DNA from: an uncultured Bacilli bacterium
Lineage (GTDB): Bacteria; Bacillota_I; Bacilli_A; RF39; UBA660
Reading direction: 5' to 3'
DNA: 44,414 nucleotides
Assembly (NCBI GenBank): GCA_947630415.1
Contig: CANRHM010000001.1
Span: 1-44,414, forward strand
The first letter of the stretch is position 1, and each line of letters starts with the position of its first letter. Shown piece by piece: positions 101 through 28,757 of this stretch. A model generated the notes under the pieces. The model was given only the letters and a program-made list of their open reading frames with translations. It did not search any database and was not told the origin of the DNA. A program made the position numbers and the translations under genes.

Positions 101-124
101 GAAAAAAAGGAGATTAAACTCCTT
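101..124 (-). terminator. weak intrinsic terminator after the last gene of the sipW operon
   Basis: AAGGAG-ATTAAA-CTCCTT hairpin (107-124), followed on the minus strand by a T-run (A-run 102-106 on plus). Overlaps the stop codon. Confidence 0.4.
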
Positions 125-608
125 GATTATGTTGATTTACGACATCTATTCTTTGGGCAACTACTTCTACCGGTTTTGGTTTATCTTTTTTCTTACTTAA
201 TAGCAAGAAAATATTAGCAGCACTTAGCCCATATAACATAATTTGAAGTGGTGCAATCATATCGGAATAGTAATCAAAGTTTATATCATATCCTTGCTGA
301 ATTCCCGAAATCATAAATGGATCTGCAACTGCACGAATACCACAGTAGATAAATAAAGCAAATACTAAGCAACAAACAAAATTATAAAAGAAATTATCGT
401 TTACTACTTTTTGCCTATAAATAAGATTTATCATAAATAAAATCAAAATGACTATATAAGGTAAAAATACCGAAACAGATTCAACTAAACTCTTTTCTAA
501 TCGCTTATACATAAATAAGATAATATAAAGTGTCAAACCTAGACTAACTAAAAGAAGCACCGTCTTCAATACGTTTAATACTTTATTCAAAAGATAATCC
601 ATCGTCAT
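114..608 (-). CDS. integral membrane protein, about 4 TM helices, unknown family
   Basis: 164-aa ORF with hydrophobic helices (TVLLLVSLGLTLYIILFMY, VFLPYIVILILFMINLIY, FVCCLVFALFIYCGI, LQIMLYGLSAANIFLLL). Its ATG overlaps the stop of the upstream ORF (TAATG), implying translational coupling. Confidence 0.6.
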   Translation of the reverse strand: MTMDYLLNKVLNVLKTVLLLVSLGLTLYIILFMYKRLEKSLVESVSVFLPYIVILILFMINLIYRQKVVNDNFFYNFVCCLVFALFIYCGIRAVADPFMISGIQQGYDINFDYYSDMIAPLQIMLYGLSAANIFLLLSKKKDKPKPVEVVAQRIDVVNQHNQGV

Positions 609-1300
609 TATTTAGCCCCCTCCATTTCTTCTCTAAGAAAGTTTGATAATTCTTCGGTAAGAGCAGCAACATCACTATAAGCATCCATAACCTCAGTAAA
701 AGAATTGGATACTTCATCATAGGTAATGGCTGAAATATAAGTGGTGAAATGGTAACTACTATTATTTAAAAGACGACTTTTTAAACCGCTGGTTTTTCTT
801 GCTAACTCCTTAATATAAAGACCTAAAACTTTTTCGTTTTGTAATAAGAAAGTGTTGGTTATTTCTTTTTCACTAGCAGAAGCAAACCAAGAAAGATTGC
901 TAAGACATTTTCCTACAGCTTCATTTTCATAAGATTCTCTTAAATAATATACATCCACGATATTTACTTGTTTTTTATCTAGCGTATTAGTTAACGTATC
1001 ATTGCTTAAAGCCGCAACACAAGTGTTAAGTTTTTGATAAGCTGTTTGAGCCTGAGAGCTAGTTAAGGATCCTTGATAAGTATTTGAATTGATACTAGCA
1101 AGATTATTTTTCGTATTTTGTACAGAAGTTAGGTAAGAATCAATAATCGAAGTTCGATAACTAGAAGAAATGGTATAAACTTTACTAATCTCCGATTGGT
1201 GATACATATTGATAAGTAAAAAGAATGAGGCAAAAGCAAAAACCAATCCCATTAGTGAATAGGCAATAATTTGACAATACTGTTTTAAAAAATCAATCAT
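608..1300 (-). CDS. N-terminally anchored hypothetical protein with a Ser/Thr/Asn-rich ectodomain
   Basis: 230-aa ORF. One N-terminal TM (IIAYSLMGLVFAFASFFLLINMY), RBS AAAAGGAG 8 nt before the ATG, two Cys in the extracytoplasmic part. No family recognised. Confidence 0.6.
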   Translation of the reverse strand: MIDFLKQYCQIIAYSLMGLVFAFASFFLLINMYHQSEISKVYTISSSYRTSIIDSYLTSVQNTKNNLASINSNTYQGSLTSSQAQTAYQKLNTCVAALSNDTLTNTLDKKQVNIVDVYYLRESYENEAVGKCLSNLSWFASASEKEITNTFLLQNEKVLGLYIKELARKTSGLKSRLLNNSSYHFTTYISAITYDEVSNSFTEVMDAYSDVAALTEELSNFLREEMEGAK

Positions 1301-1330
1301 ATAATTTGCTCCTTTTTATTTTTTTTATTT

Positions 1331-1906
1331 TTAGGAAACCAAGGTTACTTTATAATGGTAATGCTTATTCGCCCAAGAAGTATCATAAGCATCCATCTTT
1401 ACCCAAATACGAAGTGCAAATTCATAAGTCTTATTCCCTGGAATAACACCTTCTGATAAAATGTTCATTTGAAGATCAGATAAGTTACCTGAAGCCACGA
1501 CTTTAGCATCTCTTGTTAATTGGTAACGAAGTTGACTTCGATCTAACAAGGTAGAAGTAGTACAACCATCTTTAATTTCACCAAGAGGCAAGTCTTCAAT
1601 TAATAGTCTGTATTTCCCTTCCGTTTCACTCTTATTTGTTACGGTGAAAAGATACGGATTAATGGCACTTCCATCTTCATCCGATAAAGGATTGGCTTCC
1701 ACTAAAGTAATTCCTTCTCCATTATCTTTTATAGAAACTTCTAGTACAGGAACTCCACCACTCAGATTCTCTGGCGTCATAAATGCATAAGAGAAACTAA
1801 AGATTAAACATAATCCTATTAATAACACGAACATAATAACAACAGGATAAGTAAGGAACCTATTATCTTGTTCTTCTTCATTTTTAATTTTAATTTTTTC
1901 TTCCAT
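1331..1906 (-). CDS. short TasA-like paralogue with a SipW-cognate-type signal/anchor (191 aa)
   Basis: Start moved to MEEKIKIK (ATG 1906), 1 nt after the sipW stop, with GGAGG in the sipW 3' end. Charged N-region plus one TM ending in FSFSYAF. Shares the motifs ANPLSDEDG, YLFTVTN, YEFALRIWV and the C-terminal HYKVTLVS with the three larger paralogues. Confidence 0.6.
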   Translation of the reverse strand: MEEKIKIKNEEEQDNRFLTYPVVIMFVLLIGLCLIFSFSYAFMTPENLSGGVPVLEVSIKDNGEGITLVEANPLSDEDGSAINPYLFTVTNKSETEGKYRLLIEDLPLGEIKDGCTTSTLLDRSQLRYQLTRDAKVVASGNLSDLQMNILSEGVIPGNKTYEFALRIWVKMDAYDTSWANKHYHYKVTLVS

Positions 1907-1907
1907 T

Positions 1908-2843
1908 TTAACCTCCCATGGATACTTTATCTTTTCTATTTTTCGGATAAATCCGTATGACATCTTTATAGACTTCATTGCTTATTTTAACAGTTTCTTT
2001 TTCTTTTTTTGTCGAAGGTTCGATTAAAATAACATCTTTATAAATTTCATTTACTTGCATAACCTCAATATTGAGTAATAAGGCCTCTTCTTGTTCTTCT
2101 ATGATTTCTTTATCAGACACAATAGATAAGTTAGTTAATAAATCATAGTCTTCTTCCTCGACTGGTTCAACCATAGGAATAGCCTTAAATGGATCTTCCT
2201 CTTTTGTTGATCTACCCTTGATGGTATTTGCTTTATCCTTATTTTCTTCTAAAGCCATTTTCTTTCTAGTAGAGCGAATAAACACAGCTACTAATTTAAC
2301 AAGGTCATAAACAATAATAGCTAAGCAAGGTAGAACAATAGCGATGATCCAACCATAAGAAGTAGATAAAAATTCTTGTAAATAGCCTAATTTAGGAATT
2401 TTAAATATGACTTTTCCTAAAATATTTTCTTGAGGTACGATCCAAGAGTCCTCCACATTGTTGTTATCTCCTTGAGTACGATATCGATAATTACCATTTG
2501 CATCTTGGTCACGTCCAACAACACGGTGCGTAACGGTTGCTCCATAATGCATAGGATCATGTGTTACAAAAGTAATGACATCTCCTACTTGTATAGAAGA
2601 GGGCAAAGCTTTAACATCCACGACTGCATCTTTAACTAGAATCGTAGGTTCCATACTATTGGTAAGAATAACATAGGCACTTAGAAGTGGTGAAACATAA
2701 TGATCTTTATTAATATTTTGCTTTTCTTCTACAAAGTAGACTACTACTGTGATCGCAATTAAAATTAATATAAGTAAAATAGAATACATGAAAACAGATG
2801 CAATAAAGTGCAACGCTCTTTTAACATAATCAAATGCTTTCAT
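1908..2843 (-). CDS. sipW: signal peptidase I, ER/archaeal (SipW) type, with a ~120-aa C-terminal extension
   Basis: N-terminal TM, then LTNSMEP (catalytic Ser box), VTHRVV (His box), TQGDNN box and a second TM (GWIIAIVLPCLAIIVYDLVKLVAVFI). Sits among proteins with SipW-type signals. Confidence 0.8.
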   Translation of the reverse strand: MKAFDYVKRALHFIASVFMYSILLILILIAITVVVYFVEEKQNINKDHYVSPLLSAYVILTNSMEPTILVKDAVVDVKALPSSIQVGDVITFVTHDPMHYGATVTHRVVGRDQDANGNYRYRTQGDNNNVEDSWIVPQENILGKVIFKIPKLGYLQEFLSTSYGWIIAIVLPCLAIIVYDLVKLVAVFIRSTRKKMALEENKDKANTIKGRSTKEEDPFKAIPMVEPVEEEDYDLLTNLSIVSDKEIIEEQEEALLLNIEVMQVNEIYKDVILIEPSTKKEKETVKISNEVYKDVIRIYPKNRKDKVSMGG

Positions 2844-2876
2844 TAATGCACCCCGATTCTATTCACTCTACTATAC

Positions 2877-2905
2877 ATGATAGCAAAAAAAAAGATTTTT
2901 TACAA
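2877..2905 (-). promoter_or_regulatory. putative sigma-A promoter of the sipW operon
   Basis: Minus strand reads TTGTAA-17 nt (AAAATCTTTTTTTTTGC)-TATCAT, then the RBS GGGGTG and the ATG at 2843. Confidence 0.4.
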
Positions 2906-2935
2906 TAGAAAAGAAACATATCGACTATGTTTCTT
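2906..2935 (-). terminator. intrinsic terminator after the Gly-Ser-repeat paralogue
   Basis: Perfect 10-bp stem AAGAAACATA/TATGTTTCTT (2911-2935) with a 5-nt loop, followed by a T-rich tail on the minus strand. Confidence 0.55.
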
Positions 2936-2943
2936 AACTTATT

Positions 2944-3690
2944 TTACTTAGCTGAAGTTGCCACTAAATTAACTTTAGCTGAGAATGTTTTGTTGCTATA
3001 ATCTTCGGCATATTGTCTAACCCACAAACGTAAACGATATTTTTCATTATAACCAGGTTCTTCAATTTTTCTAGTAAATAACATTTTACCATCAAACTCA
3101 TTGCTCTTAAAATCTTCATATTGACTATATACTTTAACGCTTCCTAAATACAACGTTTCTGGCACAGCAATTTCTCTATTTCCCTTTAAATTCGTTACAT
3201 ATACTTTAACGTCCGGATCTAAAAGCGTAGAGGAAGCCATTTTTTCTAAGATAACTTTATACTCTAAAGGATTTCCTTCTCTTGGATTACCAGTAACTTG
3301 AAAATCAAAATAAGTATGATTTCCTACCATTACTTTACCTTCTTCATCGGTCATTGGAAAAGCATTGGTAATATAGATTCCGTTAGCAGGAAAATATCCT
3401 CCACTTCCACCGGAACCAGATCCTGAGCCCGATCCAGAACCCGAACCTGTTCCATCACCTTGAGCTCCACTATTATCCGAATAAGAAAATAAAATATCTC
3501 CTGTTTGAATGGTATTATTAGAAGTACTACTTCCACCATCCATTCCTAGATAATCTCGTTGAAAAGCAAATGAAAAAGTCATTAATCCAGAAATCAATAA
3601 AATAAATAAGAATATAAATAAATAAATATTTTTTCTAGAGGTCTTTGTTTCTTCTTGTTCAATATCAATATTAATGTCCTTTTTATCCAT
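2944..3690 (-). CDS. TasA-like paralogue with a SipW-cognate-type signal and an internal Gly-Ser repeat (248 aa)
   Basis: Long charged N-region and a TM ending in TFSFAFQ, then NNTIQTGDILFSY. Also GDGTGSGSGSGSGSGSGGSGG, NAFPMTDEEG, YFDFQVTG, KYRLRLWV and the C-terminal NKTFSAKVNLVA. Confidence 0.7.
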   Translation of the reverse strand: MDKKDINIDIEQEETKTSRKNIYLFIFLFILLISGLMTFSFAFQRDYLGMDGGSSTSNNTIQTGDILFSYSDNSGAQGDGTGSGSGSGSGSGSGGSGGYFPANGIYITNAFPMTDEEGKVMVGNHTYFDFQVTGNPREGNPLEYKVILEKMASSTLLDPDVKVYVTNLKGNREIAVPETLYLGSVKVYSQYEDFKSNEFDGKMLFTRKIEEPGYNEKYRLRLWVRQYAEDYSNKTFSAKVNLVATSAK

Positions 3691-3754
3691 ACCTCTTCAC
3701 CTCTATTATAAGAGTACCACATCTAAATCATTAATTCAAGTAAATATCGTAAAG

Positions 3755-3781
3755 AAAAAACACTCCGAAGAGTGCTTTTTT
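3755..3781 (-). terminator. intrinsic terminator after paralogue B
   Basis: Minus strand GCACTC-TTCG-GAGTGT hairpin followed by T6, with an A-run on the other side (bidirectional shape). Confidence 0.6.
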
Positions 3782-3788
3782 AACTAAA

Positions 3789-4634
3789 TTATTGTTGGTC
3801 TTTAGCAACGACATTTATTTTAACAGTGAATGTTTTTCCGTTAGTTCCTTTTTGGAATGTGTTACCCTCAACGCTACATTTACCTGCTGCTGGAACTTCT
3901 TCTTGCACTTGATCTGATTTTACACAAGCATCATTTGTCATTTGAGTTAAGTTGCCATTACCTTCATTTTCGGTAGTTTTATAGCCATCTTCAGCCAATC
4001 CACTTTTGAGATAATAACGATCAGAGAACCACATTTGGAATTTGTAATAATGTGTTGCTTCTGCTGCACTTACGGATTCACCAGTCGATGTGAAAGTACC
4101 TGAACCTAAAACTTTTTGAGCTTTTAGACTGCTATCAGAAATTAGTTGATCACCTTTAGCATCTTCTAAAGAATCAAAGAAAGTTGGTTTTACAAAATCA
4201 GAATAACTTTTAGCAGCGGTTTCATCTTTTAAAAGGCGTAAACGAACATACTTTGAATCCAATGTTTCATAGTTTGCTGGATCACTCGTCTCTGCAACAA
4301 TAATATCATAATCAATTGTTAATTTACCATTTAAAGTAGATGCAACAGTAAATTCAAATTCACCTTTTTCGTCGTCACTTAGATTAGTTAATGCAGTTCC
4401 TGTAGCATCAGTATCTGAAATAGGCATTGCATTTGTTAAATTGACACCGTTCCCAGTTTCATTATAACTGAATACCAAAGTACCTGTACTAATAGTATTA
4501 GTAGTTGTTCCTTGTTTTGAATAAGTAAAGAATGCGAATGACACTCCTACTACTGCAACTACTAAAATAGCAACTGCTAAAACTGATAATAAAACTTGAC
4601 TTGTTTGATGATTATTATTCCTTTCTTCATTCAT
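3789..4634 (-). CDS. TasA-like secreted protein, paralogue B (281 aa), SipW-cognate-type signal
   Basis: MNEERNNNHQTSQ, a TM ending in VSFAFFTYSKQG, then TNTISTGTLVFSY (compare TasA TWAAFNDIKSKDATFASGTLDLS, from memory). Also NAMPISDTD, EFEFTVAS, HYYKFQMWF and GKTFTVKINVVA. Strong RBS AAGGAGG. Confidence 0.75.
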   Translation of the reverse strand: MNEERNNNHQTSQVLLSVLAVAILVVAVVGVSFAFFTYSKQGTTTNTISTGTLVFSYNETGNGVNLTNAMPISDTDATGTALTNLSDDEKGEFEFTVASTLNGKLTIDYDIIVAETSDPANYETLDSKYVRLRLLKDETAAKSYSDFVKPTFFDSLEDAKGDQLISDSSLKAQKVLGSGTFTSTGESVSAAEATHYYKFQMWFSDRYYLKSGLAEDGYKTTENEGNGNLTQMTNDACVKSDQVQEEVPAAGKCSVEGNTFQKGTNGKTFTVKINVVAKDQQ

Positions 4635-4663
4635 TTTTCTCTTATCCTCCTTATCATAATTAG

Positions 4664-4693
4664 ATTATAGTAAAAGTTACCCCCCCCCGTCAA
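4664..4693 (-). promoter_or_regulatory. sigma-A promoter of paralogue B with a G9 tract in the spacer
   Basis: Minus strand TTGACG(4693-4688)-18 nt-TATAAT(4669-4664). The spacer begins with the rest of a G9 run (C9 on plus, 4680-4688). Confidence 0.6.
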
Positions 4694-4721
4694 GGGTTTT
4701 GACACAAAAATATTTTTGTTG

Positions 4722-4749
4722 ACAAAAAAAGTATCCATAATGGATACTT
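4722..4749 (-). terminator. intrinsic terminator after paralogue A
   Basis: AAGTATCCA-TTA-TGGATACTT perfect 9-bp stem (4729-4749), followed by a T7 run on the minus strand. Confidence 0.75.
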
Positions 4750-4758
4750 AATTTTTTA

Positions 4759-5580
4759 TTATGCAGCGTCTTTAGCATTTACATCTAATCGAACGACGAA
4801 AGTTTTTCCATTGGTACCTTTATCAGCTTCATTGTATGAAGCAGTTGCTTTTTCTGTTCCATTTTGTCCATATATTGGATCATCGCAAGGAATTTTTTCT
4901 TCACCTTCCATATATTTGGTATTTGTACACATATCAGGTGTCATCATTGTATCTTTAGTTGTTCCAGACTCTACATTATCCATATATTTTGTTGCAAACC
5001 ACATTAAGAAACGATATTTATGAATTTGCTCTGTTCCAGCTTCTGCTGTTCCTGTAAACTGTCCATTAGCTAAAAGTTTAGCTTCAGAATTTTCTTGAGC
5101 ATTATCCAATTTAACGAACCATTGTGGTGCTAGTTTTACCGTAGAATATGTACCTTCTTTATCTCCTCCATACAAAGCAACTTTAACGTATTTTGGATCT
5201 AGATGGTATCTTTCTTCTACATGATCAGTAGTCGATTTTTCAACAGTAATATCTTTAACACTTATTTCATAATTGATGGTCATTGTTCCAGAAATAGTAG
5301 ATGTTACACTGAAATCAAAATAACTATTTTCAGAAGCACCAACTCCGGTTGAAGGATCCGTCGTTGGAATAGCATTTTCTAATTTAATTCCAGGGGCTTC
5401 CTCCTCATATTTAAATACTAATGATCCTGTGCTAATGGTGTTGGTAGTTGATCCTTGTTTTGAATACGTAAAGAATGCAAATGACACTCCTACTACTGCT
5501 ACCACCAAAATAGCTACGGCTAAAACTGATAATAAAACCTGATTTGTTTGATGACTGTTATTGTTTTTTTCTTCGTTCAT
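4759..5580 (-). CDS. TasA-like secreted protein, paralogue A (273 aa), SipW-cognate-type signal
   Basis: The first ~58 residues are almost identical to paralogue B. It shares NAIPTTDPS, YFDFSVTS, HKYRFLMWF and GKTFVVRLDVNA. Strong RBS AAGGAGG. Confidence 0.75.
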   Translation of the reverse strand: MNEEKNNNSHQTNQVLLSVLAVAILVVAVVGVSFAFFTYSKQGSTTNTISTGSLVFKYEEEAPGIKLENAIPTTDPSTGVGASENSYFDFSVTSTISGTMTINYEISVKDITVEKSTTDHVEERYHLDPKYVKVALYGGDKEGTYSTVKLAPQWFVKLDNAQENSEAKLLANGQFTGTAEAGTEQIHKYRFLMWFATKYMDNVESGTTKDTMMTPDMCTNTKYMEGEEKIPCDDPIYGQNGTEKATASYNEADKGTNGKTFVVRLDVNAKDAA

Positions 5581-5608
5581 CTTTTCTTATCCTCCTTATC
5601 ATAATTAG

Positions 5609-5637
5609 ATTATAATAAAGTTAACCCCCCCAGTCAA
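5609..5637 (-). promoter_or_regulatory. sigma-A promoter of paralogue A with a G7 tract in the spacer
   Basis: Minus strand TTGACT(5637-5632)-17 nt-TATAAT(5614-5609). The spacer starts with G7 (C7 on plus, 5625-5631). Confidence 0.6.
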
Positions 5638-5665
5638 GTAATTTGACATAAATTTTTTTATTGAC

Positions 5666-5691
5666 AAAAAAAGAATGCTCTAAGCACTCTT
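5666..5691 (-). terminator. intrinsic terminator after the 3D-domain gene
   Basis: Minus strand AAGAGTGCT-TAG-AGCATTCTT (one G-U pair) followed by a T-run. Confidence 0.6.
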
Positions 5692-5698
5692 AACTTTT

Positions 5699-6286
5699 TT
5701 ACCAACCCCAACGAAGTATTTCGTAGGAAATATTATATTGCCTACCAATAGGAGCTGTAACTTTTTCTGATTCAAATAACAAATCCATGGTTAATCCTTT
5801 AATAGCACTTCCACGATCTAGTGCAATCGCTATAATAGGTTCGCTACTAAAGTTAAAGTTTGATATTTTTACAATAGTTCCACAAGGAATCACTGGATCG
5901 GTTGCTACAATTCGTATAGTTCCATACGTTGCATCGTTAAAATAGATATTTCCATCTCGTACGTCCTGTCTTGGAGGGCATCCTACTCTTCCACCACATC
6001 CTTCACAGTCTGGTCCATATCCTGTAATAGTTCCTGTAAAAGTAATAGGACCAATTGGGCCTTGCTCTTCGATTTCAGCAAGACTTGATACATATAAAGG
6101 TTTATTACTATCTAATATTGCATTGTATTTCGATACAATATGAATAGCTTCTAAAGACTTGGTACGATTTATATTATCTGTTTTAATTACTTCACGTTGA
6201 TTACCAGAAGCAATAATTAAAAGAATTACTGCTATAAAGGAAATGAGAAGAAAACGATTCTTCATGGCTACTAAAAATTGTCTCAT
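5699..6286 (-). CDS. 3D-domain (YabE-like) cell-wall protein with an N-terminal anchor
   Basis: N-terminal TM. C-terminal IVATDPVIPCGTIVKISN...AIALDRGSAIKG..MDLLFES matches the 3D-domain pattern. Position after metG-tatD mirrors B. subtilis metS-yabD-yabE. Confidence 0.75.
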   Translation of the reverse strand: MRQFLVAMKNRFLLISFIAVILLIIASGNQREVIKTDNINRTKSLEAIHIVSKYNAILDSNKPLYVSSLAEIEEQGPIGPITFTGTITGYGPDCEGCGGRVGCPPRQDVRDGNIYFNDATYGTIRIVATDPVIPCGTIVKISNFNFSSEPIIAIALDRGSAIKGLTMDLLFESEKVTAPIGRQYNISYEILRWGW

Positions 6287-7128: not shown

Positions 7129-7299
7129 TCATTCTTTACTTAATACTACATAGTACGTAAAACCAAAAAATAGAATTACGCCAAAAGTGAAGTCTAACAT
7201 GCATCCATTAATAAAAGGAAGTACTTTAATTATAATGGAAATCAGCACACATCCTAATAAGGTGTTTCTAAGGCTTCGTTTCATGTGTAATAGTTTCAT
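7129..7299 (-). CDS. possible 56-aa small membrane protein (below the ORF-track cutoff)
   Basis: Hand translation gives MKLLHMKRSLRNTLLGCVLISIIIKVLPFINGCMLDFTFGVILFFGFTYYVVLSKE. Two hydrophobic segments, weak RBS AAAGGGAAC. It fills an otherwise empty 310-bp gap. Confidence 0.35.
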   Translation of the reverse strand: MKLLHMKRSLRNTLLGCVLISIIIKVLPFINGCMLDFTFGVILFFGFTYYVVLSKE

Positions 7300-9215: not shown

Positions 9216-9244
9216 ATTATAACATAATTCAAATTATTGTTCAA
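9216..9244 (-). promoter_or_regulatory. sigma-A promoter of the T-box/metG transcript
   Basis: TTGAAC(9244-9239)-17 nt-TATAAT(9221-9216) with an upstream TG (extended -10). The -35 lies in the 3' end of spoVT. Confidence 0.55.
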
Positions 9245-9764
9245 GATGTTTCGATAAAAATTGCGTGATAATCGTAACCATGTGTTTTTCAGTATCGGTA
9301 ATATTTTTCTCTGGTTCATAAAGAATAACTTTTCCTACTGCATCTCCGTTTACTAGAATAGTTGATCCATAGAAGTATCCCTCTTCAAATAGTCCATCCG
9401 ATATTTCAAACTTTGTCTTAAGATGGGAATTTAATTCTTTCTTATCGACAATGTTCTCTTCTAAGGTTCTAGATAGACTTCTTCCTAAATATTTTTTCTT
9501 TAATGGAAGAGAGCAACCTAACACTTCATCTCGATCCGTAATAATAACGGAAGCATTTAATGATTGATATACAGCATCGGCCAAAGCTTGTGAAATGTCA
9601 TCCATATCGTTCATTGGTGAATACTTCTTTAAGGCAATCATATCCTTATCTACAAAAATTTCCAATGATTCCCCATCTCTGATTCGTAAACTTCTGCGTA
9701 TTTCTTTAGGAACGACGATTCTACCTAAATCGTCTATTCTTCTAACAACTCCGGTTGTTTTCAT
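9234..9764 (-). CDS. spoVT: AbrB/SpoVT-family transcriptional regulator (SpoVT-like, 176 aa)
   Basis: Start moved to MKTTGVVRRIDDLGRIVVPKEIRRSLRIRDGESLEIF (SpoVT/AbrB swapped-hairpin motif) with RBS GGAAAGTGGGGA. C-terminal ~120-aa GAF-like part. Lies next to mfd as in B. subtilis. Confidence 0.8.
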   Translation of the reverse strand: MKTTGVVRRIDDLGRIVVPKEIRRSLRIRDGESLEIFVDKDMIALKKYSPMNDMDDISQALADAVYQSLNASVIITDRDEVLGCSLPLKKKYLGRSLSRTLEENIVDKKELNSHLKTKFEISDGLFEEGYFYGSTILVNGDAVGKVILYEPEKNITDTEKHMVTIITQFLSKHLEQ

Positions 9765-9917
9765 AAAATCCCCACTTTCCTTACAATATCTAGTTTTCCA
9801 ACAAAAAGAATGTTTATACCTAGAATATATTTTTTTACTTTTTACTGCTTCATAAATATTATAAGCATTTTTTAGACGATTTTCTTTGGAAATATTTACC
9901 AATAGTTTACAAACGTT

Positions 9918-28202: not shown

Positions 28203-28658
28203 TTAGCCATTTTTTACTTTTTTTCGATGATTTAAAATTGATTCTAATAAAGTCGCTCTTAAAAATTGATTATTTAAAGAATAACTGGAGACATTTGTTT
28301 TAATAATTTTTCCATTTTTGAAATAGATTAGAGCCTTTTTTTGATTTTTTCCAATCTTTCTAAAATGTTTAAGGGATATCCAAATACAATTATCCAATAA
28401 AGGTGAATTGGTTGGAAAGAAAATAAGTCTTCTTGCCTCTTCTACTACGATAGGTAATTTGTATTCCGCATTTAATATAGCTTTAGACCCCATTACTCTC
28501 CCCTCATAACTACTTCCATAATACCTACAACTGTCATCCATAATCTCATAAGCAGACTTATCCACGATATATTCATCGTGAGTTTCGATAATACGTGACT
28601 TATTTTCAGATATACTAATAATAGCCAGTGTATTATCATTAATTTCATAATCAAACAT
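28203..28658 (-). CDS. comK: ComK-family competence transcription factor (151 aa)
   Basis: Start moved to MFDYEIN (RBS GGGGGAAAAG). SCRYYGSSYEGRVMGS, LIFFPTNSPLLDNCIWISL and FKNGKIIKTNVSSYSLNNQFLRATLL parallel B. subtilis ComK SCRFFGSSYAGRKAGT, IFLFPTLSSTRPQCGWIS and FSNGKTMELPISYNSFENQVYRTAWL (from memory). Confidence 0.65.
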   Translation of the reverse strand: MFDYEINDNTLAIISISENKSRIIETHDEYIVDKSAYEIMDDSCRYYGSSYEGRVMGSKAILNAEYKLPIVVEEARRLIFFPTNSPLLDNCIWISLKHFRKIGKNQKKALIYFKNGKIIKTNVSSYSLNNQFLRATLLESILNHRKKVKNG

Positions 28659-28757
28659 TTCTTTTCCCCCTAACTGCAAATTTTAAATTTGCGCCACCAG
28701 TTTATCAAATTTACTTGTCGAATTTGCTCTAATTTTGTCGAAGGATAAAAATTTTGT

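Follow-up and report, generated by a model that had tools for sequence, protein, structure and literature searches.

What do uncultured gut Bacilli build with a cluster of seven genes, one of which encodes a signal peptidase and four of which encode paralogous proteins with an N-terminal hydrophobic helix, in the origin region of their chromosome? The question is raised by contig CANRHM010000001.1 of an uncultured Bacilli bacterium (assembly GCA_947630415.1), of which positions 1 to 44,414, hereafter the window, were analysed. The cluster occupies positions 114-5580 of the minus strand. A first-pass annotation had described it as seven co-directional genes comprising a SipW-type peptidase, four TasA-like paralogues and two membrane proteins, and all seven open reading frames (ORFs) are present and read in the same direction. 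The answer favoured here, as probable but far from certain, is that the locus encodes a TasA-like donor-strand fibre or surface-display system that depends on a SipW-type peptidase.

Three of the genes, here called A, B and C, encode subunits of the major type; all coordinates of the cluster refer to the minus strand. A (4759-5580, 273 amino acids) has a predicted signal helix at residues 12-31 and a putative cleavage site SFA35↓F36, downstream of which lies a beta-sandwich with a two-cysteine insert. B (3789-4634, 281 amino acids) is its paralogue, and C (2944-3690, 248 amino acids) is a divergent form in which a Gly/Ser-rich linker separates the conserved N-terminal segment from the beta-sandwich. 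They are followed by D (1908-2843, 311 amino acids), a signal peptidase I of the endoplasmic reticulum (ER)/archaeal or SipW type; by E (1331-1906, 191 amino acids), a distant, single-copy paralogue of the subunits, the ATG of which abuts the stop codon of D; by F (608-1300, 230 amino acids), a bitopic membrane protein; and by G (114-608, 164 amino acids), a membrane protein with four transmembrane (TM) helices, the start codon of which overlaps the stop codon of F.

D is, judged by its residues and profile scores, a catalytically intact SipW-type peptidase. It passes the model of archaeal/ER-type signal peptidase I, TIGR02228, with 96.2 bits (cut-off 51.85) and aligns to human SEC11A and SEC11C (E 3.9e-5 for SEC11A). 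Its catalytic residues Ser63, His106 and Asp126 lie within the boxes NSMEP, THRVV and QGDNN, by which the first-pass annotation had recognised the enzyme; they align with those of SEC11A, and the boxes are conserved across 56 orthologues. Two TM helices (17-35 and 166-184, from hydropathy) flank the catalytic domain, which is the topology of SipW. D scores 21 bits against Pfam Peptidase_S26, under the cut-off of 22.9, and 76.9 bits against NF046067, the equivalog model of Bacillus SipW, well under the cut-off of 190; therefore it is the same type of enzyme as Bacillus SipW and not its orthologue. The long cytoplasmic tail that had been ascribed to D does exist, as an acidic C-terminal extension (~190-311), but it is lineage-specific, being common only to D and its nearest relative, and the homologues have ~200-270 amino acids.

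The four neighbours of D are paralogous and share one layout, as had been supposed. A and B are 42% identical (E 5e-44), and a hidden Markov model (HMM) made from database relatives only gives 233 bits for B, 223.5 for A, 134.6 for C and 29.7 for E, with E-values that refer to a database of one million sequences, while the E subfamily aligns with the major family over the full length by hhalign (probability 98.9%, E 1.6e-17). The family is very large: a word-index search found 685 clusters at 90% identity, and an exhaustive search with an HMM yielded 5,566 clusters at 50% identity, of which 2,730 have E <= 1e-10. No Pfam or NCBIfam model covers the module of this family and no member is named, the only source name found for cluster members being "hypothetical protein". 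The shared motifs pointed out by the first-pass annotation are real, since G52, P72, D75, F90, Y104 and W194 are invariant in 39 sequences and the N-terminal motif positions described below are nearly so in a larger sample. Moreover, many members are long proteins (400-1,743 amino acids) in which the module forms the N-terminus and Flg_new, Laminin_G_3, Big_2 or Cadherin-like domains come after it, and therefore the module is extracellular, in agreement with the earlier claim. The C-termini of A, B, C and E (...VNAKDAA, ...VVAKDQQ, ...VATSAK and ...VTLVS, respectively) bear no LPXTG sorting signal and no sortase gene was found in or beside the locus, so sortase-assembled Gram-positive pili were rejected as an explanation.

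The member with 1,743 amino acids (locus L082, 7001-12232), which contains Flg_new repeats, adjoins genes for a hybrid histidine kinase and a response regulator, is flanked by four unannotated ORFs (144-191 amino acids) and lies just upstream of murG-murB-divIB-ftsA-ftsZ. With murG and murB in this position, these bacteria carry genes for the synthesis of cell-wall precursors.

What the family keeps most strictly is its N-terminus. Over 150 representatives, each pair of which is at most 50% identical, conservation reaches 2.7 bits per column in the signal helix and 2.6 in the next 25 residues, and is 0.7-1.5 later in the protein. The motif reads G31-[VI]-[ST]33-[YF]-A35↓[AF]-F37-[TSN]-[YF]-[ST]-x-x-G43-x-x-x-N47-x-[IVL]-x-T51-G52-x-[ILV]-x-[MF]-x-Y58-x-E60, in which S33, A35, F37, N47, T51, G52, Y58 and E60 are nearly invariant; counted position by position, G31 occurs in 143 of the 150, Ser or Thr at 33 in 145, A35 in 148, F37 in 138, N47 in 146, G52 in 139, Y58 in 142 and E60 in 139. 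The sequence [ST]-x-A is the textbook site of type I signal peptidases, and A would accordingly be cut after A35 (A35↓F36). The TasA family has the same conservation profile, with its peak at the signal and the donor-strand region.

However, so extreme a conservation of a TM helix would also fit a membrane anchor that is retained, and this counts against the fibre proposal. On that explanation the proteins would be type II-anchored, or would be pilin-like subunits with a core of helices as in archaeal type IV pili, and the peptidase would act on other substrates or on some of them only. The helix is indeed the most conserved segment, the orthologues of E mostly have no small residue at -1, and the sole PDB sequence matches of the family profile are the archaeal type IV pilins 8tib, 6nav and 8fjs, all of which run through the TM helix. 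These matches are non-significant, however (E 0.26-3.4); there is no class III signal (neither a G/A↓hydrophobic site before the helix nor Glu at +5), and no locus contains a prepilin peptidase, an assembly ATPase or a platform protein, whereas [ST]-x-A stands at the C-terminal end of the helix in 148 of the 150 representatives and a type I signal peptidase is always adjacent. Furthermore, the signal peptides of the TasA family are just as conserved and yet are cleaved (PMC9674648). A type IV pilus, which would need a class III signal, a prepilin peptidase and an ATPase, was rejected, and retention of the helix in any form is considered quite unlikely.

The relation to TasA itself is where most of the points against the fibre proposal are found. 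Membership in the TasA family proper fails: A, B, C and E have no match to Pfam PF12389 (Peptidase_M73) at E <= 1, none of 39 family members matches this model at E <= 10, and the window proteins match neither TIGR04088 nor the related NCBIfam models of SipW-cognate signals at E <= 1. A TasA HMM built for the comparison gives at most 13 bits on the subunits, at the N-terminus only, and hhalign against a TasA alignment gives a probability of 10.7% (P 0.0029), or 28% (P 6e-4) with larger alignments. The first-pass annotation had listed the lack of an HMM match to SipW-cognate signals among several outcomes that would refute its idea, and formally this one has occurred. Structure comparison is hardly kinder. 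With an AlphaFold2 model of A as query, Foldseek found no PDB entry at E <= 1e-3; third in rank comes 8aur_A, the TasA fibre (E 4.2e-3, probability 0.85, TM-scores 0.28/0.31), and the best 50 descriptions contain neither monomeric TasA (5OF1/5OF2) nor the solved superfamily filaments AbpA, CanA and threads.

Nevertheless, the weak alignments agree with each other. Their register is always alike, with SFA↓FF placed on TWA↓AF, NTIsTGTL on NsFAAGTL and L.NA.P on LSNLKP, so that F37 is paired with F29 of TasA, N47 with a conserved Asn, I49 with F39 and G52 with G42, and a longer alignment of low confidence puts W194 on the invariant W233 of TasA. In the TasA fibre, residues 28-38 are the donor strand, and F29, I32 and F39 make hydrophobic contacts (PMC9674648). 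As to sequence, the site G-x-[ST]-aromatic-A↓x-F in register with TasA is a resemblance and not family membership; of the TasA link drawn by the first-pass annotation, the proposed register stands, kinship at the level of HMMs does not, and that by alignment probability or fold is weak. The subunits may be homologous to TasA, as very divergent relatives within the wider superfamily (TasA, BsaA, AbpA, AbpX, CanA, threads and the archaeal Tafi), and the family appears to work like the TasA system in those parts that can be read, namely the dedicated peptidase, the type of cleavage site and the conserved strand after it. In the model of A (predicted local distance difference test, pLDDT, 79; predicted template modelling score, pTM, 0.73), the TM helix 12-31 is followed by an all-beta sandwich and residues 34-50, the proposed donor strand, are of low confidence. 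The top Foldseek matches are all weak, and they include CupB6 (3.6e-3), the CS20 pilin (4.0e-3), 8aur_A, FimG and the pilin domain of PapG; the prominence among them of subunits of donor-strand-exchange fibres lends the fibre proposal some support from modelling. The chaperone-usher pilins in this group (FimG, CS20, CupB6 and PapG pilin domain) have TM-scores of 0.18-0.19 normalised to the query and 0.15-0.34 normalised to the smaller targets; unlike the subunits here, they belong to a Gram-negative pathway of periplasmic chaperone and outer-membrane usher, genes for which are absent from this locus.

Taken as a fibre system, the locus would operate as follows. A, B and C would be expressed from their own promoters, two of which are near-consensus, and exported by means of the highly conserved signal helix; D would then cleave each of them behind the invariant [ST]-[YF]-A, which in A means at A35↓F36. 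The N-terminal segment so freed (F37...N47-x-I-x-T-G52...Y58-x-E60) would serve as donor strand and linker; the strand would enter the beta-sandwich of the neighbouring subunit, and such donor-strand exchange would link the subunits head to tail into homo- or heteropolymers. Family members to which lectin or Ig-like domains are fused would be built into these fibres as adhesins.

The proteins could instead be monomeric or layer-forming surface proteins, that is, variable coat proteins or adhesins, which are processed by the peptidase and then released or else held at the surface, perhaps by F and G, with no donor-strand polymerisation. This is thought unlikely, but it has much to draw on: the family is large and diversifying, with 1-7 copies per locus and, in one metagenome-assembled genome (MAG), orphans at >= 10 loci; the 5' end of the genes is conserved and the remainder variable; some members are fused to adhesin-type domains; the similarity to TasA in structure and profile is weak; and sortases are reported to be absent in the related orders RFN20 and ML615J-28 (PMC10868615), which would make an alternative route of display plausible if these MAGs belong to those orders. 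Left unexplained by it are the peak of conservation in the first 25 mature residues, the in-register alignment of these residues with the donor strand of TasA, the lack of structure of the N-terminal segment in the monomer model and the tolerance of a linker right behind that segment. The last point comes from spacing. In 178 of 185 subunits, exactly 8 residues separate the Y-x-E motif from the NA.P..D motif, and C-type paralogues of the window's sub-clade have an insert of up to ~30 residues between the two, Gly/Ser-rich in the window's C; an insertion at this place fits an arm reaching a neighbouring subunit more easily than a strand packed in its own domain. The DNA of the Gly/Ser linker in C was also searched for phase-variable repeats, and only a weak 12-nucleotide repeat of 2.7 copies was found.

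In the fibre proposal, E takes a special part. E gives 164.5 bits with the HMM of its own subfamily, which is separate and single-copy. It keeps the motifs of the acceptor domain (P..D, F.V.N, LRIW and the last strand) and lacks the N-x-I-x-T-G signature (N47, T51, G52), and in its orthologues the position equivalent to -1 is mostly Leu, Met or Val, Ala being present in ~9 of the 44 scored. A subunit that is not cut frees no donor strand; it would form the end of the fibre and hold it at the membrane. Thus E is probably a specialised terminal subunit which accepts a strand and donates none, possibly held in the membrane as an anchor. The E of the window speaks against this, since it has a canonical S-Y-A↓F site; therefore the role of an uncleaved anchor is uncertain for this genome.

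F and G were described by the first-pass annotation as membrane proteins of unknown kind, and this description holds: neither matches Pfam or NCBIfam. F has one predicted TM helix, at the N-terminus, an extracytoplasmic all-helical bundle and two invariant Cys (C94 and C132); its AlphaFold2 model (pLDDT 82.5) rests on a shallow alignment of 10 relatives from the homology search, and by Foldseek it resembles only generic helical bundles (vinculin tail, PA28) at E >= 0.1. G has four predicted TM helices and no match among PDB sequences. These comparisons thus bring no informative homologue to the aid of the fibre proposal. A DsbB/VKOR-like function of G, suggested by its size, its four TM helices and the Cys residues of A, B and F, was dropped because there is no CxxC and no Pfam match. 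Each of the two genes is present in 53 loci, and because they strictly co-occur and are translationally coupled with D and E, a role in membrane assembly or anchoring is the most economical guess; F and G would be system-specific accessory proteins, and maybe form a platform for assembly or anchoring together with D.

The coherence of the locus is apparent from its distribution. When one genome was scanned for each species, 78 loci emerged, every one of them in a MAG of an uncultured gut bacterium. The MAGs bear the labels Bacilli, "Tenericutes", Clostridium sp. CAG:451 or Candidatus Onthousia, and the samples were taken from rabbits, humans (Hadza, Nepal), chickens, mice and the rumen. In 52 loci the order is [A/B/C-type]n-D-E-F-G, with conserved flanks consisting of methionyl-tRNA synthetase (MetRS), TatD and a YabE-like protein on the subunit side and KsgA beyond G. 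The number n is 1-7, with a mode of 4, in loci with the upstream TatD boundary present, while D, E, F and G invariably occur once each and in that order; over all loci, D adjoins subunit genes in 56 of 78. The view that a dedicated, non-housekeeping set of genes is inserted in the origin-proximal region is thereby borne out. What is new here is that such a locus is inherited strictly vertically, at a single position of the chromosome, within a gut lineage that is uncultured. Three loci (L014, L056 and L070) labelled "uncultured Muribaculaceae" (Bacteroidota) also carry [A/B/C]n-D-E-F-G, two of them (L056 and L070) with the MetRS/TatD flank; they are probably mis-binned or mislabelled. Orphan subunit genes occur outside the locus as well. 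The rabbit MAG Lapin-012__bin84 has family genes at at least 10 separate loci (L016, L018, L029, L030, L037, L038, L042, L043, L058 and L068) with no peptidase gene nearby, some of the forms having 492-606 amino acids, which indicates a strongly expanded repertoire of surface proteins.

The window itself is an origin region, in which the sign of the GC skew switches near 31 kb, with dnaA, dnaN, recF and gyrB on one side and rnpA, yidC, jag and mnmE on the other. Upstream of the locus are MetRS, TatD and the YabE-like 3D-domain protein; the contig ends just beyond G, and related genomes continue with ksgA, yabG, veg, spoVG, yabP, yabQ, divIC and tilS. These flanks match the origin-proximal order, and therefore the locus is an insertion into the classical gene order of Bacilli at that place.

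The transcription signals, all on the minus strand, divide the locus into two parts. The promoter of A (5609-5637, TTGACT-17-TATAAT), which is preceded by the terminator of the upstream yabE-like gene (5691-5671), and that of B (4664-4693, TTGACG-18-TATAAT) each have 11 of 12 consensus positions and, by their sequence, are of the near-consensus sigma-A type. An AAGGAGG ribosome-binding site precedes the ATG of A, and an intrinsic terminator with a 9-bp stem and a T run (4729-4749) follows the gene; behind B is a terminator-like hairpin read from the sequence (~3755-3775, GCACTC-ttcg-GAGTG + T6), the palindrome of which a program listing had placed on the plus strand at 3761-3774. Consequently, the statement that two paralogues have their own strong promoter and terminator is correct. 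From the promoter through the 5' untranslated region to codon 58 (the first 175 nucleotides of the coding sequence), the DNA of A and B is 72-88% identical, and beyond codon 58 the identity is ~50%. C has a perfect -10 box, TATAAT (3710-3705), and is followed by a weak AT-rich hairpin (2934-2912, read from the sequence) just upstream of a candidate weaker promoter for the remaining genes (2877-2905, TTGTAA-17-TATCAT, TG-extended, 9 of 12 positions); D-E-F-G look like one operon, and another terminator-like hairpin is at the end of G (107-124). A filament locus would usually have structural genes that are monocistronic and strongly expressed, ahead of a machinery operon with weak expression, so the putative arrangement, structural genes with their own promoters and terminators and machinery genes in a single operon, supports the fibre proposal. 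No riboswitch or leader RNA was recognised in the intergenic regions, where no Rfam match was below E 0.7.

In both strong promoters (4664-4700 and 5609-5645), the spacer from the -35 to the -10 box contains an unusual run of G7-G9, TTGACT-GGGGGGG... and TTGACG-GGGGGGGG..., respectively. Slippage in such a homopolymeric tract could change promoter strength.

The same promoters bear on the question whether the products could belong to the spore, as a coat component or as endospore appendages, instead of forming vegetative fibres. Sporulation genes surround the locus: spoVT lies upstream (9234-9902 of the window, minus strand), and yabG, veg, spoVG, yabP and yabQ lie downstream in relatives (L079-L081), which suggests that these gut Bacilli with reduced genomes are, or descend from, spore-formers. 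Two of 39 family members have faint matches to Pfam PF13157, Enas (E 0.13-2.2). TasA was first described as associated with the spore coat (PMC9674648), and the Ena appendages are a second precedent. Nonetheless, a spore structure is very improbable, because the flanking genes merely stand as they do in the conserved origin-proximal order of Bacilli, A and B have near-perfect promoters of the sigma-A type, and an N-terminal connector like that of Ena, with its Cys, is missing. Membership in the Enas family was discarded, as its matches are non-significant, A reaching 8.8 bits where the cut-off is 22.

How, then, does the proposed fibre system compare with those already described? The TasA superfamily comprises cross-domain donor-strand fibres, the genes of which often neighbour those of accessory proteins and of a dedicated signal peptidase I (bioRxiv 10.64898/2026.01.04.697558; PMC9245690). 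Like tapA-sipW-tasA of B. subtilis, the locus encodes a dedicated ER-type signal peptidase beside its substrates and a divergent accessory partner (TapA there, E here). The subunits have, like TasA, a highly conserved signal peptide ending in [ST]-aromatic-Ala and followed by x-F, an N-x-hydrophobic-x-x-G-T-[LI] segment at similar spacing and, as predicted, an all-beta mature domain, and conservation peaks at the same place. The differences are that similarity to TasA is absent at the HMM level and only weak in structure, that B. subtilis has one major subunit whereas 1-7 major paralogues occur here, that TapA differs in fold from TasA whereas E is a paralogue of the subunits, and that here D is not a SipW orthologue and two extra conserved membrane proteins, F and G, are present.

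The BsaA/TasA family is very divergent in sequence and widespread, often with several paralogues per operon (PMC11580942). The sipW-bsaA-bsaB-bsaC operon of C. perfringens likewise combines a SipW peptidase with several remote TasA-like paralogues, and BsaA, to which the subunits here may be likened, exchanges donor strands by means of an N-terminal loop, disordered in the monomeric protein; the membrane anchoring of BsaA oligomers is a parallel to the role proposed for E (PMC11580942). On the other hand, the bsa operon has a vWA protein and a link to type IV pili, neither of which is seen here, and no counterpart of F and G. The N-E-K isopeptide that locks BsaA subunits was considered and is unsupported, since N47 and E60 are near-invariant here but there is no invariant Lys.

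A comparable organisation is that of the haloarchaeal Tat-fimbriae (Tafi), with TafC as tip, TafE as adapter, TafA as major subunit, TafF as anchor and TafD as signal peptidase (PMC11821415). There too, several paralogous donor-strand subunits divide the labour, a dedicated signal peptidase I is present, a terminal subunit, TafF, is tethered to the membrane as is proposed for E, and the TafC tip carries a laminin-G-like domain, comparable to the Laminin_G_3 domains of family members here (PMC11821415); the locus also contains extra hypothetical membrane proteins. Unlike the present system, Tafi is archaeal and exported by the Tat pathway, its peptidase has four TM helices and an extra domain, and TafF is anchored by a TM segment at its C-terminus, where E would rely on an N-terminal one left uncleaved; the likeness seen here is one of organisation. 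The first-pass annotation had regarded the composition as unprecedented. This is too strong, since with BsaA/BsaB (PMC11580942) and Tafi (PMC11821415) operons of several TasA-like paralogues and a peptidase have been described and the general kind of system is already known; E, F and G are without precedent. What is new is a very large subunit family that is invisible to current HMM libraries, a probably terminal E derived from a paralogue and the membrane proteins F and G with no known counterpart.

Several observations concern the neighbourhood. Where yabE stands in B. subtilis, directly upstream of the locus, a gene (5699-6286, minus strand) encodes a protein of 195 residues that has a TM helix at the N-terminus and a 3D domain at the C-terminus; its synteny extends to 36 related loci, and it shows no sign of belonging to the fibre system. 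A small unannotated hydrophobic ORF of 56-61 amino acids is conserved between MetRS and TatD (7129-7299, minus strand; 6962-7147 in L079). Further away, the otherwise canonical dnaA-dnaN-recF-gyrB block is interrupted between dnaN and recF by a gene for a ComK-family competence regulator (28203-28679, minus strand; Pfam ComK, 141 bits).

A bolder view, which is speculative and more probably wrong than right, is that the locus is the core of a hitherto unrecognised, sortase-independent pathway for surface display and fibre assembly in these Bacilli, in which a platform of D, F and G couples cleavage to polymerisation and anchors the product via E, and onto which thousands of module proteins are plugged. 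Equally tentative is the corollary that among these would be large adhesins, with domains of the lectin, Ig-like and Listeria-Bacteroides repeat kinds. If this were true, it would be a new assembly machine, beyond another TasA homologue.

A large, anonymous family of subunits is thus encoded in a strictly conserved locus of uncultured gut Bacilli with reduced genomes from human, rabbit, chicken, mouse and ruminant hosts. If its products are donor-strand fibres, the TasA-type principle of assembly reaches a major group of gut commensals with no cultured representative, and F and G would be two new candidate factors for assembly or anchoring. The locus could also explain how adhesins are displayed in these bacteria. 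In addition, the invariant N-terminal module is a handle for finding their surface repertoire in metagenomes and its processed N-termini in metaproteomes.

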